A stretch of DNA of 64,000 nt from NCBI GenBank assembly GCA_963733055.1, contig CAVTBR010000001.1:1312001-1376000 (forward strand). The letters run 5' to 3'. Both the position numbers and the translations under genes were made by a program. Source of the DNA: Candidatus Bathyarchaeota archaeon (GTDB lineage: Archaea > Thermoproteota > Bathyarchaeia > 40CM-2-53-6). Of this stretch, positions 35,671 through 40,023 are shown in pieces. The number at the start of each line of letters is the position of its first letter. Position 1 is the stretch's first letter. The notes beneath the pieces were generated by a model, which searched no databases, had not been told where the DNA came from, and saw nothing but the letters and a program-made list of their open reading frames with translations.

Positions 35671-36078
35671 TTAGCTTCCGTTTTTGCGAACAGCCTCAGC
35701 TACTTCTGCCGGTAGTTCTACTGCTTTCCATTCGGAGTTTACCGCGATACATTTGACGTATCCTTCAGCAGCCACCTTACCGTCGTGTTGCCGGATGGCT
35801 TGAAAGTCATAGGTGATTGTTTTCTCGGCAACATCCTTGACCCGCATTACAACATCAAAGATGTCGTCGAAGTGACAAGCCGCCTTATACTGACAATGGG
35901 CTTCGACTCTTGGGAATGTGATTCCATATTTTGCGCGAATATCGTTGAATGGTAGGGATATTGATCTATAGAATTCTTCTTCGCAGGCTTCGAAGTATCG
36001 GAGGTAATTCGTGAAGTGCATCACGCCGGCTACGTCGGTGTCAACCCAATGGACGCGAAACGTGCTCTTGAATGGCAT
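35671..36078 (-). CDS. Acyl-CoA thioesterase (YbgC/4HBT family)
   Basis: DTDVAGVMHFTNYLRYFE. Confidence 0.9.
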   Translation of the reverse strand: MPFKSTFRVHWVDTDVAGVMHFTNYLRYFEACEEEFYRSISLPFNDIRAKYGITFPRVEAHCQYKAACHFDDIFDVVMRVKDVAEKTITYDFQAIRQHDGKVAAEGYVKCIAVNSEWKAVELPAEVAEAVRKNGS

Positions 36079-36211
36079 CCGAACCAACTTTGCCTCAAGG
36101 AACTGCTTCATGAATTTAACCCGCCCGCTTAACTGAGAGGGATACCCTTCAGGAAACGCGGAAAATCTCAGTGAATGCTTATAGGATACGGACCTGAGCC
36201 TTTGATTCGGT

Positions 36212-36416
36212 CCCGCGGTAGCTCAGCCTGGTAGAGCTTCCGAGTCCCTCTTCACAAGGAGTGACGGAGACGCTGTAGGTGTGCGCCCAAGGCGCATCCA
36301 CGTCAGCCTGCTAGGCTAACAACGGATACCGGAGTGTCGCTGGAGAACCTCGCTGCAAGGTTCGGCGAATTCAAAATAGAGTTCAGAACTCTATGAAACT
36401 CCGGCCCGCGGGACCA
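36212..36416 (+). tRNA. tRNA-Tyr(GTA) with four introns (30/31, 37/38, 53/54, 59/60)
   Basis: Introns 36243-36271 (29 nt), 36279-36327 (49 nt), 36344-36369 (26 nt), 36376-36399 (24 nt); mature 77 nt with C1-G72 and A73; BHB-type motif at every junction. Confidence 0.9.
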
Positions 36417-36419
36417 ATA

Positions 36420-37581
36420 TCACACTCGTTTGCGTATGGTTGCTACCCGAGCTAGCTTTGATAACTCGGATAGGTTTTGTTTCAGATCGAAGCTCCAACC
36501 CTGGTCTTGGTCGAAGAGCTCGTAGGAGATCGTTTGACTTGCTCTCTCGATAAAGTCCTGCCTAACAGCCGAATACGATTCCAACGACCCTTCTTGAGCC
36601 ATTTGAGAGAGGAAAGCGAATAGGGAGGGGACCTGTGTCTGGAGAGTGTACGTTCTGACAAGCAACGAGTTCTGGTGAAGAATCTTTGAGATGCCAAGAA
36701 CGAAGAAGAATTCGTTCATGGATGAATAGAATCTATTCATGTCTCGAGAGTTTCTGAATTTGAGCAATATTTCATGGTAGGCTGAGACTGTTTCAGGGTA
36801 CGGCAACACGTCGAAACCGAAGTAATTCACAATCCCAGTAGGAACGAGTTTCTTATCGTAATGGTACTTTACCCCTTGCAATGAAATGCCTAGCAGGGGC
36901 GCGAGTTCAGCGAAGCTCTTGCGACCGTTCTTCTCAAGCTCTTTCACAATCAACATGTCTTTCTTGTCCGAGAATAGGGTAGTTGGCTGGGTCTTCGATC
37001 GTTTGAGACGGTTTCTTCTTGAACGAGGCTAGCCAGCGTCCCCATTGAAACGTCCATTCATTGGTTGCCGGGTTGTAGTAGTCGAAGTTTGGGAAGTTTG
37101 GAATGTATTCGCCTGTGAGCATTATGTTAGACTGCGAGATGAGGCCCAATTCGACAATTCGTTTCATGTAGCTTCTGAACTGCTTCAGAAATTTGAATGG
37201 AATTAGGTGGACTGAAAAGTGTGTGAAGGTCCCTTCGCAACGGTTCACAGACCTCCAGTAATTTGGCACCTTAAGCGCCATAGTCACCCTGTCTTCAGAG
37301 CCAAGGTTAGCGGTGGCTAGGACAACAACACGCATTAAGCCAAGTTTTGAAACCTGGGGAACAAGGGAAACGAGCCGCTTTGATTTCGCTTCAAGTCTAG
37401 CTACTCTGTGGTAGACTGATGTGAAAGGTATGCCCGTTCTCCTAGAAACTTCGAGTAAGTTACGTGGGCCGTATTTCCACATGGCGGATAGTATCTTTAT
37501 GTTGGTTCGGTCGAGCTGCTTGATTATTTCTCTGATTCCTTTGTGCCAGTCTGCTAACCGCACTTTTTCGGTCTTCAGCAT
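36420..37581 (-). CDS. Tandem Lrp/AsnC-type winged-helix regulator, apparently frameshifted near 36968
   Basis: Half 1: LDRTNIKILSAMWKYGPRNLLEVSRRTGIPFTSVYHRVARL; half 2: DKKDMLIVKELEKNGRKSFAELAPLLGISLQGVKYH; halves joined by a one-base shift. Confidence 0.8.
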
Positions 37582-37680
37582 TGTTTGCGTGCCTGGAAAC
37601 AGCCCACGGTGGCTAAGATATAACCTGTTAGTTTTCGTACAAAAAACATGGGAAATTTGTAAGGGGTGCACCGCAGGAGT

Positions 37681-37812
37681 TTAGAATAGTGCTGTTATGA
37701 TGCCGTGTGGGCCGCCGGTCGGATCTCCGGCGCTGACATTGCGCGTCATCAGGACTACGGCAACGAGGGCCAGAACTACAACCGCGGCGAGCAGGAGCCT
37801 AAACTTTGACAT
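37681..37812 (-). CDS. 43-aa secreted micro-peptide precursor (not in ORF track)
   Basis: MSKFRLLLAAVVVLALVAVVLMTRNVSA-GDPTGGPHGIITALF; strong RBS GGAGGTGA; AT-rich TATA-like element upstream. Confidence 0.75.
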   Translation of the reverse strand: MSKFRLLLAAVVVLALVAVVLMTRNVSAGDPTGGPHGIITALF

Positions 37813-38128
37813 TGACTCACCTCCGCCGCGGTAAGGTTGCGCGGTGTGACTTTATTTATTTACAAAATATGACGCGGAAATCGGCAACTTATATATGCGG
37901 CTTTCAGGTTGGCTCGCTAACCCGGGATATGATTTGTGCGACCACTGCGACGCCTTAGCGAGTATTCTCTCGGACCTTGTAGGGCCTAAAGCGTCGGAAG
38001 TGGTTATGAAAAGAGTAAGGGCAAGAATGCACGGGACCAGCGAACTGAGTCCCCAAAGGGATTCACTAAAGCCAGCTAGTCAGCCACATTGACGGTCTTC
38101 GCATTAATCGAGCGCTAGGATCCGACTC

Positions 38129-38593
38129 TTACGTTATCTTGTACAGGTACAGTCTACGTGTAATTCCGCTCGTGTTAACCTCTAGCTCCCGATCTGCCAC
38201 CCATCCGGGGAGCTTGTAGTCTAATGAGACGACCCGCGCCCCCGCTTTCAGTTTCGTCTTCAATTTTGGCGCGAGCTTGACGTTCGCCGAATCTGAGAGA
38301 TAAATGGCGATTACGTCGGCGGATGACAGGTCGACTTGGAAGAGGTCTCCTTCAATCAAATCAGCCTCCGTCCCTGTAGCTGCTAATCGTTCCCTAGTTC
38401 GACTGATCCGTTCTGGGTCGATCTCAACGCCTACCGCTTTAGCCCCAAACCGCCGCACCGCCTCAATCATTATCCGCCCGTCCCCGGCGCCCAGATCGAA
38501 CAGAGTTTCCCCACGCCGTAAGGATGCTAGTTGAAGCATCTGGCGAACTATGTCCTTGGGGGTAGGAACGTAGGCGACATCGAGGTCAACCAC
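38129..38593 (-). CDS. Class I SAM methyltransferase (protein-lysine methyltransferase-like)
   Basis: YVPTP, DLGAGDGRI, GVEIDP. Confidence 0.85.
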   Translation of the reverse strand: MVDLDVAYVPTPKDIVRQMLQLASLRRGETLFDLGAGDGRIMIEAVRRFGAKAVGVEIDPERISRTRERLAATGTEADLIEGDLFQVDLSSADVIAIYLSDSANVKLAPKLKTKLKAGARVVSLDYKLPGWVADRELEVNTSGITRRLYLYKIT

Positions 38594-38735
38594 AATCTAC
38601 TACCTCAGTCAATATCGGCAGATTGCCAAGAAACGAACGAGAATCTCCTCATGAGAATCAATCTTGACGAGAGTTGGCGATTTTCTGGTGGTCAGCAAGG
38701 CTTTAAACTGGCTTCGAGGGGTGTGAGTTGCAAAC

Positions 38736-38840
38736 GCCCTGGTCGTTCAGTGGTCTAGGATGACGGCCTGTCACGTCGTCGACGCGGGTTCGAATCCCGC
38801 CCAAAGGAGCAGCCTGAAACTCTCCTGGCGAGGGGCGCCA
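38736..38840 (+). tRNA. tRNA-Asp(GTC) with a 29-nt intron in the 3' acceptor strand (68/69)
   Basis: Removing 38804-38832 restores CCAGGGC-G-CCA, which pairs with 5' GCCCTGG; strict BHB. Confidence 0.9.
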
Positions 38841-38854
38841 ACCCGCGGTTCAGA

Positions 38855-38995
38855 TCACTCATCGAAACCGACAAGCTTCTTGACATCCTTCTTCTCCATT
38901 TTATCGCCCTTGCAACGCGGGCAGGTTGGCGTATTGGAGGCGGAAAGAAACTCGTAACCGCACCCTGCGCATTTCCAGTAAATAACATCCTGCAA
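38855..38995 (-). CDS. 46-aa zinc-ribbon protein (not in ORF track)
   Basis: TTG start: MQDVIYWKCAGCGYEFLSASNTPTCPRCKGDKMEKKDVKKLVGFDE; GGAG upstream. Confidence 0.75.
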   Translation of the reverse strand: MQDVIYWKCAGCGYEFLSASNTPTCPRCKGDKMEKKDVKKLVGFDE

Positions 38996-39063
38996 AGCAA
39001 TCTCCGACCTACATTTCGTTACTTAGTCAATAAGTAACGCCCTACTTCTTATTTTGAGAGGAC

Positions 39064-40023
39064 GTGTTAAATTTGATTCCAGGCACTGAAACAGATGTAG
39101 TTGCAGCAATTGAGAAAGTAAGCCCCGCAGTTGTCTCAGTCGCTACGTTGCGGGTTATTCAAGAAAGCATGTTCGACGCCATCCCAGTTTGCGGAATGGG
39201 GTCGGGAATAATTTTCGATTCAAACGGTGGAATCCTCACCAACCACCATATCGTTGAAGATGCGGAAAGGGTCGAGGTTCTTACGCCGGATGGTAAGAAG
39301 TTCCGCGGAGAGGTGTTGGGATCCGATTCGATGTCTGACGTGGCTGTGGTGCGAGTTGATGGAGAAAACTTACCCGCGGTTAAGCTTGGTGACTCTGACA
39401 AGTTGAAGGTGGGGCAGGTCTCAATCGCCATCGGAAACCCCTACGGGTTCATGTTGCCGGGGCCGGCGGCGACGGTTGGAGTGATCAGTGCGTTGAAGCG
39501 GCATATTCACGTTGAGGAGCGCATGTACGAGGACCTGATTCAGACGGACGCTTCCATCAACCCTGGTAACAGTGGTGGCCCGCTCGTAGACAGTTCGGGG
39601 ATGGTGGTTGGAGTTAACACCGCCAACATTCCGTTCGCGCAAGGCATCGGATTCGCCATACCCATCAACGCCGCGAAGAGGATAGCGAAAGAAATCATTG
39701 AGCATGGTCGTGTGATTCGACCGTACGTTGGCATAGCCGGTTTGACCCTGACACGAGAGATTGCGGAATCATACAATCTCCCCTACGAACAGGGAGCTCT
39801 TGTTGTGAGGGTAGGGAGAGGAAGCCCAGCGAAGAGGGCCGGGGTGGCGGCGGGAGATGTGATCCTGGAAGCCGACGGTAAGGCTCTCAAGGGTTGGGAA
39901 GACCTACAACACATACTCCAAGATAAGAAGGTGGACGACACCCTCGAGTTACTCATCGGCCGCGACCGAGAACAGGGAAAAGTACACGTAAGGCTGGAAG
40001 AAGCCAGCAAGGTCATCGCTTAA
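39064..40023 (+). CDS. HtrA/DegP-like trypsin serine protease with PDZ domain (no signal or TM)
   Basis: GSG, LTNHHIV, DVAV, IQTDASINPGNSGGPL, PDZ. Confidence 0.92.
   Translation: MLNLIPGTETDVVAAIEKVSPAVVSVATLRVIQESMFDAIPVCGMGSGIIFDSNGGILTNHHIVEDAERVEVLTPDGKKFRGEVLGSDSMSDVAVVRVDGENLPAVKLGDSDKLKVGQVSIAIGNPYGFMLPGPAATVGVISALKRHIHVEERMYEDLIQTDASINPGNSGGPLVDSSGMVVGVNTANIPFAQGIGFAIPINAAKRIAKEIIEHGRVIRPYVGIAGLTLTREIAESYNLPYEQGALVVRVGRGSPAKRAGVAAGDVILEADGKALKGWEDLQHILQDKKVDDTLELLIGRDREQGKVHVRLEEASKVIA

Follow-up and report, generated by a model that had tools for sequence, protein, structure and literature searches.

A micro-gene family tied to tandem Lrp/AsnC regulators in soil and peat Bathyarchaeia

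Does a 43-amino-acid (aa) open reading frame (ORF) just ahead of a regulator gene in an uncultured archaeon encode a signal that the regulator senses, or a product that the regulator controls? The question is raised by a locus in a 64,000-nucleotide (nt) stretch of contig CAVTBR010000001.1 from a Candidatus Bathyarchaeota archaeon (assembly GCA_963733055.1), the whole of which is called the window here. A first-pass annotation of this DNA had paired the small ORF (the micro-ORF) with a neighboring tandem Lrp/AsnC-type regulator and likened the layout to the Phr/Rap, PapR/PlcR and arbitrium systems. We find that the 43-aa ORF is a genuine protein-coding gene under selection and that the pair it forms with the regulator is real and functionally linked. 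Our best reading, held tentatively, is that the micro-ORF encodes an exported Gly-rich peptide and that the dedicated tandem Lrp/AsnC regulator controls its gene locally.

The micro-ORF and its family

The micro-ORF lies exactly where it had been placed, on the minus strand, and the strong ribosome-binding site reported for it is the Shine-Dalgarno sequence GGAGGTGA, 4 nt ahead of the ATG (coordinates in Table 1). Since 45 ORFs of at least 30 aa occur within 4.5 kb around the locus, the size of the micro-ORF is in itself unremarkable and conservation has to decide. Four orthologue pairs gave ratios of non-synonymous to synonymous substitution (dN/dS) of 0.37, 0.28, 0.22 and 0.30, and the frame of the micro-ORF is the sole frame open across all 10 orthologues. 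Comparison of the window's own genome (G000) or of G019 with G013, the latter two being its closest relatives, showed 7 synonymous against 2–4 non-synonymous changes in the segment encoding the C-terminal core. The product itself reads as the first-pass annotation had it, with a basic n-region (MSKFR), a hydrophobic h-region of ~17 residues and the string T-R-N-V-S-A. By these features residues 1–28 form a predicted Sec-type signal peptide ending in V-S-A, behind which the 15-residue core GDPTGGPHGIITALF remains.

Putative expression signals frame the gene on both sides. When the upstream regions from 17 loci are aligned, the strongest conservation falls on the TATA-like block TTGTAAATAAATAAAG; the same alignment holds the conserved motif TTGTAAATAAATAA, then the Shine-Dalgarno sequence, and GGAGGTGA or a near variant is present in these regions and at 11/11 metagenome loci. 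The block TTGTAAATAAATAAAG occurs once in the 64-kb window. With at most two mismatches it was found at 8 of 11 micro-ORF loci (upstream of the regulator), at the remnant in genome G012 described below, and as one reverse-strand match in G000b. On the other side of the gene, most of the 17 aligned intergenic regions between micro-ORF and regulator carry a T-run at the equivalent spot, and TTATAT or TTATAC is conserved in the same alignment. Because the T-tract and then TTATAT stand between the two genes in most of these loci, micro-ORF and regulator look like separate transcription units, with the T-tract as a likely archaeal terminator and the TATA-like elements as putative promoters.

A single-sequence search with the micro-ORF matched 9 further genomes of the genus, each time immediately upstream of a regulator homologue, and a profile built from 10 orthologues had matches at E <= 5e-9 in 11 of the genus's 23 genomes, one copy in each. 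The other 48 genomes of the family gave no profile match better than E = 0.02; weak matches in other genera (G068 and G073, E ~0.5) were spurious, lying out of frame within a 161-aa ORF. A large public protein collection yielded 63 relatives of 37–82 aa from several sources, all unnamed or called 'hypothetical protein'. An exhaustive search of 1.84 billion representatives returned 27 short clusters and two long matches, of 970 and 1411 aa, which were rejected as motif coincidences and not family members. In the former (P0064, a metagenome protein) each repeat of ~160 residues follows the string P-A-G-D-P-T-G-G-G-A-H, also found in the core, a resemblance that we judge to be coincidental. Pfam and NCBIfam hold no family for the micro-ORF, and a protein atlas gave no usable match. 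On these searches the micro-ORF would found a small new family restricted to a single Bathyarchaeia genus from soil and peat.

The 63 relatives share a common anatomy. An n-region with 0–3 Lys or Arg residues (9 in one over-extended ORF call) is followed by a hydrophobic run of 17–24 residues, the positive charges of the precursor lying N-terminal; V stands at −3 in 47/63 and A at −1 in 46/63, immediately ahead of G-D. The family core, GD-x(1-3)-G-G-G-x-H-x-[IL]-[IL]-x-A-L-[FL], is 14–17 residues long and ends exactly 7 residues after the His in 44/63. Asp and His are invariant among the first 10 orthologues and a His-containing core is present in 63/63 first-round relatives; among distant short representatives the His is absent in 7/17 and shifted in others, while G-D, the G-G-G run and an I-I-x-x-L-L tail are kept. 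Three precursor forms occur: a single core (42–45 aa), a spacer plus core (58–62 aa), and two tandem cores (69–82 aa), the last in 9/63, where a single signal peptide precedes the tandem 16-residue repeats. In the spacer and double-core forms the alignment shows Y or F in place of the −1 Ala of the short forms (N-A-S-Y, N-V-S-Y), so that cleavage at this position is doubtful in them; these longer forms have an alternative S-N-A site two residues earlier. A type IV pilin-like signal and a lipobox were both rejected by eye, as neither a G/A ahead of the hydrophobic stretch nor a conserved Cys is present.

Linkage to a tandem Lrp/AsnC regulator

The regulator ATG (37581) lies 99 nt beyond the micro-ORF stop on the same strand. 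The annotated spacing of about 100 bp and the two halves, each with a winged helix-turn-helix (wHTH) and an effector domain, were thus borne out, although in the window the regulator is split into two ORFs. The first-pass annotation had settled in advance that regulator homologues not recurrently flanked by such micro-ORFs would speak against the pair, and the pair survived this test. Micro-ORF searches made independently of the regulator led to copies in 11 genomes and on metagenome contigs, and all 21 testable copies (11/11 genomic and 10/10 metagenomic) have a regulator 65–115 nt downstream on the same strand. An eleventh metagenome contig stops 20 nt past its micro-ORF, and three contig pairs share identical peptides, so that the metagenome copies are not all independent.

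The surroundings of the pair vary. Here it is flanked by genes for a methyltransferase, tRNAs, a thioesterase and a major facilitator superfamily (MFS) transporter; in G002 by those for a metallo-beta-lactamase-fold protein and a pyridoxal phosphate (PLP) enzyme, and in G011 by one for a molybdopterin dehydrogenase. Since the flanking genes differ between loci, small gene and regulator form a self-contained cassette. The small gene is not the same in every cassette. Among 34 regulator loci, the micro-ORF is present in 11, five of which also have an inverted gene for a mini-protein described below; in 12 the mini-protein gene itself immediately precedes the regulator on the same strand (one of these matches is weak); and 11 have neither small gene, one of them with just 99 nt of upstream DNA. 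At least three regulator orthologues at the same syntenic site, right after the methyltransferase gene, stand without a micro-ORF (G016, G022 and G007). At locus L031 of G012 an 18-codon micro-ORF remnant, MSSICLAAGDGGGGGSGN, lies ~150–200 nt upstream of an intact regulator, devoid of signal peptide and hydrophobic tail, with a degenerate micro-ORF promoter motif still in place. In a tree of regulator module 1 the micro-ORF loci and the mini-protein loci occupy different supported subclades, with the backbone unresolved. The tandem regulator family has 2–4 paralogues per genome in the genus, and G002, G003 and G015 are among the genomes that hold both kinds of locus.

The two overlapping ORFs of the window regulator (36934–37581 and 36420–36956) result from a 2-nt deletion near 36968, as alignment with G019 and G013 shows. 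One public contig (X1, 299 nt, differing in 1 other letter) has CG inserted behind 36968 and another (X2) has AG as two extra bases at 36968; an intact fused frame in near-identical DNA identifies the frameshift of the window as an assembly error or a strain variant. Without the deletion the window regulator would be 387 aa long, and in 27/28 aligned relatives the protein is a single chain of 373–414 aa, one paralogue having 345 aa. The G019 regulator (L021) has a deletion of its own, of ~101 nt in the C-terminal RAM region, which shifts the frame of the last ~35 residues; the window and G019, the closest genomes, thus each carry a different lesion in the regulator gene.

Domain and fold searches point to the same architecture in both halves. 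In the intact G013 orthologue (387 aa) Pfam found HTH_24 (49 bits) and an HTH_AsnC-type domain (48 bits), each over two stretches and with no other domain call, and the helix-turn-helix (HTH) matches are weaker in each window half than in this orthologue. The Pfam RAM model AsnC_trans_reg matched neither the window halves nor G013. With a profile of 28 homologues, each half aligns with whole Lrp/AsnC chains, for example residues 6–124 of 2dbb and 1–146 of 2pmh. The AlphaFold2 (AF2) model, for which the G019 copy served as the query, has a predicted local distance difference test (pLDDT) score of 83.5 and a predicted template modelling (pTM) score of 0.81, and comprises two HTH plus beta-alpha-beta-beta-alpha-beta modules; its disordered tail is due to the query's own ~101-nt deletion. 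Foldseek matched each half to Lrp/AsnC regulators at TMt 0.6–0.73. The first helix-turn-helix (HTH1) is the most conserved part of the protein, with a mean top-residue frequency of 0.80, and an N-terminal extension of ~20 residues and a Trp/Tyr-rich inter-module linker with invariant Y169, W176, W180 and W183 complete the chain. The model has both halves as complete Lrp/AsnC modules joined in a covalent pseudo-dimer. Frames of 695–761 aa with 20–26% identity to module 1 (G000:C3:109981-110496 and similar ones in 10 further genomes) may be larger multi-module Lrp-like proteins.

Each half of the regulator resembles the Lrp/AsnC ('feast/famine') regulators, such as the archaeal LrpA, FL11/PH1519, PH0140 and PH0061 and E. 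coli Lrp, which combine an AsnC-type wHTH with a RAM domain. Unlike these single modules of ~150 aa, which form dimers or octamers, the protein here fuses two of them into a ~387-aa chain with a Tyr/Trp linker. Many members of the Lrp/AsnC family control a neighboring gene and bind amino acids; here the neighbor is a micro-peptide gene and not one of amino-acid metabolism. The same two-module single-chain architecture is found in only one solved structure, that of NirDL, which belongs with AhbA-AhbB to the siroheme decarboxylases, tandem or paired Lrp/AsnC-like enzymes in which two modules make up one catalytic unit. NirDL (4ch7) was also the top Foldseek match of the model, at E 1.2e-8, TMq 0.49 and TMt 0.57 over 326 columns, a loose match with 11% identity and a root-mean-square deviation of 12.9 Å. 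We rejected a siroheme decarboxylase reading: the signature PF17805 (AsnC_trans_reg2) matched nothing genome-wide at E <= 0.001, with the control positive in 3 archaea, and is absent from the domain calls of the G013 orthologue. No haem-synthesis neighbors were seen, and the HTHs are well conserved. The family here also differs from NirDL in being expanded, each of its 2–4 paralogues having its own small upstream gene. Because PF17805 matches nothing and HTH1 is the best conserved part, the regulator is read as a predicted DNA-binding tandem Lrp/AsnC protein, a fused variant within that family.

The alternative occupant of the slot, the Cys2His2 mini-protein, has 52 aa in the window, and its gene is divergent from the micro-ORF. 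The N-terminus is M-C-D-H-C here and M-C-[DE]-H-C in the family, in which C2, H4, C5 and H33 are invariant; AF2 predicts helices at 3–16 and 18–32, forming a hairpin, with pLDDT >90 for residues 1–30. A profile search found it in 14 of 59 genomes of the family, all in the same genus, and it had no match in Pfam or NCBIfam and no usable one in the protein atlas. These results mark it as a new family of predicted helical hairpins. The gene, whose product is described as cytoplasmic, takes the place of the micro-ORF in paralogous cassettes and nearly always adjoins a tandem Lrp regulator, and its orientation in the window is opposite to that at most loci. The TATA-like motif GGCAACTTATATA tracks its orientation, standing upstream of the gene also in 6 oppositely oriented loci. 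The window's genome holds another mini-protein copy (G000:C2:74832), on a contig without a match in the regulator search. In the second cassette of G000 (L056, G000:C1:1150633-1151209) a truncated 25-codon mini-protein ORF overlaps the start of the 345-aa regulator paralogue.

Regulated product or signal

If the micro-ORF product is an exported peptide under local control, its gene would be transcribed alone, from the TATA-like promoter to the T-tract terminator, and translated from the strong Shine-Dalgarno sequence. The product would enter the Sec pathway, and a signal peptidase cut after V-S-A would free a peptide of ~15 residues outside the cell, with a flexible acidic Gly-rich half (GD-xx-GGG-x-H) and a hydrophobic tail (II-x-AL[FL]). 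The tandem regulator would bind the intergenic DNA of the cassette and set transcription of the small gene or genes on binding of a small ligand to its RAM domains; the peptide would be the regulated output, acting extracellularly or at the cell surface. The cleavage, the control of the peptide gene by the regulator, the extracellular role and the nature of the ligand are what we infer. Lrp-family regulators usually bind the DNA of neighboring genes and control them. Different small genes occupy the position ahead of the regulator, each with its own promoter motif, and micro-ORF-linked and mini-protein-linked regulators differ in just 2 of 387 columns, neither of them within a RAM domain. Such a variable slot beside nearly uniform regulators fits a regulated neighbor better than a specific ligand.

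Several observations weigh against this account. No operator motif common to both cassette kinds was found, both conserved motifs being the small genes' own promoters. The three orthologous regulators that stand without a micro-ORF mean that the peptide cannot be the regulator's only target, and the sequence of the peptide points to no effector function, with nothing matched in Pfam, NCBIfam or the protein atlas. A regulator that keeps an exported-peptide cassette across contexts also resembles a self-contained signalling module, and multi-core precursors are typical of processed signal peptides.

This last resemblance is best judged against the known peptide-sensing systems. The RRNPP signature, as outlined in the part of the source that deals with it, consists of a small propeptide of 10–100 aa, a Sec-like signal, a receptor of 250–500 aa with tetratricopeptide repeats (TPRs), and direct adjacency of the two genes (PMC10075063). 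Four of these five features are found at our locus: a propeptide of 43 aa (37–82 aa in the family), a putative Sec-like signal as judged by features, a neighbor of receptor length (the single chains of relatives, including the shorter paralogue, all fall within the range) and an intergenic distance of 99 nt here and 65–115 nt over the 21 copies. The fifth is absent: no TPR was found by Pfam in the regulator of the window or of G013, the AF2 model matches Lrp/AsnC folds, and the neighbor is a tandem Lrp/AsnC protein. The first-pass comparison with Phr/Rap, PapR/PlcR and arbitrium therefore holds for the layout and fails for the receptor. Like the RRNPP systems of Bacillota and phages (PapR-PlcR, Phr-Rap, AimP-AimR), the locus has a gene for a propeptide with a putative Sec-type signal adjoining that of a cytoplasmic, predicted DNA-binding protein of 250–500 aa, a conserved C-terminal end of the precursor, and the form of a lineage-specific, self-contained module. 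Unlike them, it has an archaeal host, signal peptidase alone would yield the 15-mer, and the core is without pherotype diversification; the micro-ORF/regulator pair falls outside the RRNPP family. Multi-copy peptide precursors are known from yeast alpha-factor and from some Phr and ribosomally synthesized and post-translationally modified peptide (RiPP) precursors. The two near-identical 16-residue cores in tandem recall these, whereas the cassette here has no processing protease or maturation enzyme and release of single cores is only putative.

In an autoinducer loop the exported 15-mer would be re-imported through an oligopeptide ATP-binding cassette (ABC) transporter and would bind the RAM domains, switching DNA binding of the tandem Lrp protein. 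The RRNPP-like layout, the conservation of the precursor's C-terminal end, the double cores and the self-contained cassette in differing contexts all suit such a loop, and 12 matches to SBP_bac_5 (OppA-type oligopeptide-binding) in the genome show the feasibility of uptake only. Much counts on the other side. The regulator is without TPRs, and known Lrp RAM pockets bind amino acids and other small molecules; the two regulator columns specific to locus kind lie outside both RAM domains; orthologous regulators persist without the peptide; and in paralogous cassettes the Cys2His2 mini-protein gene stands where the micro-ORF would be. Across the family the core motif is retained, with no split into pherotypes. 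Co-variation of peptide and receptor, which the first-pass annotation had put forward as a check, gave no special signal, with a Mantel r of 0.32 between core and regulator divergence and of 0.70 when the signal peptide is compared (n = 14 related sequences, phylogeny-confounded). Co-folding of two G015 regulator copies with a 45-residue mature double-core peptide gave a score of 0.12 (mark 0.32), counted on neither side. Searches of open-access main texts in PMC and bioRxiv brought up no report of the peptide family, of a tandem Lrp protein with a micro-peptide, or of an archaeal ribosomal peptide autoinducer. The archaeal cell-cell signals named in the relevant part of a review are diketopiperazines and carboxylated acyl-homoserine lactones (AHLs), with no ribosomal peptides among them (PMC4609331). 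As the pairing holds for all 21 testable copies but shows no sign of sensing, the linked pair is real and the export and re-import loop stays conjectural; we consider it unlikely.

The same evidence bears on four further explanations. The micro-ORF product could stay uncleaved as a small membrane protein with an N-in/C-out anchor, its 15-residue tail at the surface modulating a membrane protein or the envelope and the regulator setting its level only. The N-terminal positive charges and the Y or F at the aligned −1 position of the longer forms agree with an anchor, as does the fact that many bacterial small proteins of such size are membrane-bound modulators. A mere anchor does not need the V-x-A that precedes G-D in 46–47 of 63 members, however, and the alternative S-N-A site of the long forms also argues against one; the duplicated core better suits a released product, and an anchor is accordingly improbable. 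A metal cassette would have the secreted peptide bind Cu(II) or Ni(II) through its His and the preceding Gly amides, the mini-protein bind metal inside the cell, and the regulator respond to metal. Gly-Gly-His-type motifs do bind metal, and the invariant Asp and His of the first orthologues, the His in every first-round core and the four invariant Cys and His residues on a confidently predicted hairpin would fit. Loss of the His in 7 of the 17 distant representatives weakens this proposal, the inspected loci have no metal transporter or metallochaperone gene conserved next to the cassette, and we know of no Lrp/AsnC regulator that acts as a metal sensor, all of which leaves it very unlikely. 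An archaeocin-like antimicrobial or competition peptide whose production is switched by the regulator would also be small, Sec-exported (here by features), amphiphilic, Gly-rich, confined to one lineage and under putative local control, and the style recalls Gly-rich bacteriocins. Yet the cassettes of the inspected loci hold no immunity, maturation or dedicated export gene, selection on the core is purifying and not diversifying, and 15 residues with a single short hydrophobic tail are few for a pore former; we regard this function as highly improbable. The position directly upstream of the regulator gene might, finally, suggest that the conserved DNA is a leader, an upstream ORF or a small RNA regulating that gene. 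Against this stand the low dN/dS with synonymous changes concentrated in the core, a frame that survives indels and a whole duplicated core, the T-tract and the putative separate promoter between the two genes, and prediction of the micro-ORF by gene callers of several sources, so that a non-coding element is extremely unlikely. An exported Gly-rich peptide under local control is thus the reading that we prefer.

Neighboring features and meaning of the cassette

Table 1. Features of the micro-ORF/regulator locus, in window coordinates
Feature	Position	Strand	Basis and remarks
tRNA-like gene with long insertions	36212..36416	plus	ends 3 nt from regulator stop; arms read by eye
Regulator module 2, read from internal ATG here	36420..36956	minus	fused to module 1 in relatives
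Regulator module 1: wHTH, RAM and Trp-rich linker	36934..37581	minus	Pfam HTH_24, HTH_AsnC; PDB profile matches; AF2/Foldseek
2-nt deletion site splitting regulator	36968..36969		alignment with G019 and G013; public contigs
TTATAT, TATA-like element of regulator	37618..37623	minus	37 nt ahead of ATG; putative promoter
T6 tract, likely archaeal terminator	37641..37646	minus	35 nt past micro-ORF stop; putative function
Micro-ORF, 43 aa	37681..37812	minus	ATG to TAA; orthologue alignment, 63 relatives, dN/dS
Shine-Dalgarno GGAGGTGA	37817..37824	minus	ends 4 nt short of micro-ORF ATG
TATA-like motif TTGTAAATAAATAAAG of micro-ORF	37850..37865	minus	~40–55 nt ahead of ATG; putative promoter
TATA-like motif GGCAACTTATATA	37883..37895	plus	~40 nt ahead of mini-protein start; back to back with micro-ORF promoter
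Mini-protein gene, 52 aa, TTG start	37934..38092	plus	divergent, between methyltransferase and micro-ORF
Class I S-adenosylmethionine (SAM) methyltransferase, archaeal protein-lysine N-methyltransferase-like	38129..38593	minus	Pfam; marks syntenic site

The methyltransferase gene that marks the syntenic site lies upstream in 18 of the 34 regulator loci; its product scored 110 bits with NCBIfam NF041081, under the cut-off of 200. Downstream of the regulator, the tRNA-like gene is conserved in G019 and G013. It has a clear acceptor stem, D-arm, T-arm and encoded CCA with ~130 nt of insertions, probably introns; a further ~56 nt are inserted in the T-loop region of the window copy but not in G019 or G013. 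Neither ARAGORN nor Rfam called a gene at 36212–36416, and Rfam over 35900–39100 returned tRNA-Asp only. Beside that tRNA-Asp (38736–38808, plus) lies a 46-aa zinc-ribbon ORF (38855–38995, minus) with two CxxC pairs, for which the Pfam zinc-ribbon matches are weak.

Small exported archaeal peptides are almost unexplored, and here a family of micro-genes is shown to be real, selected and linked to a single regulator family. In this genus, tandem-fused Lrp/AsnC proteins paired with a dedicated small gene upstream constitute an expanding module, present as 2–4 paralogous cassettes per genome, in which the small gene encodes either an exported peptide or a Cys2His2 mini-protein. Should the unlikely alternative apply, with the Sec-exported 15-mer, which some species would release from a two-core precursor, re-imported and read by the tandem Lrp/AsnC protein, the locus would be the first ribosomal-peptide autoinducer circuit in Archaea. 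This would mean that RAM domains can sense peptides and that peptide quorum sensing had an origin independent of the TPR-based RRNPP receptors. For the uncultured Bathyarchaeia of soil and peat, the cassette could thus either show Lrp-type peptide sensing or define a new regulated exoproduct.

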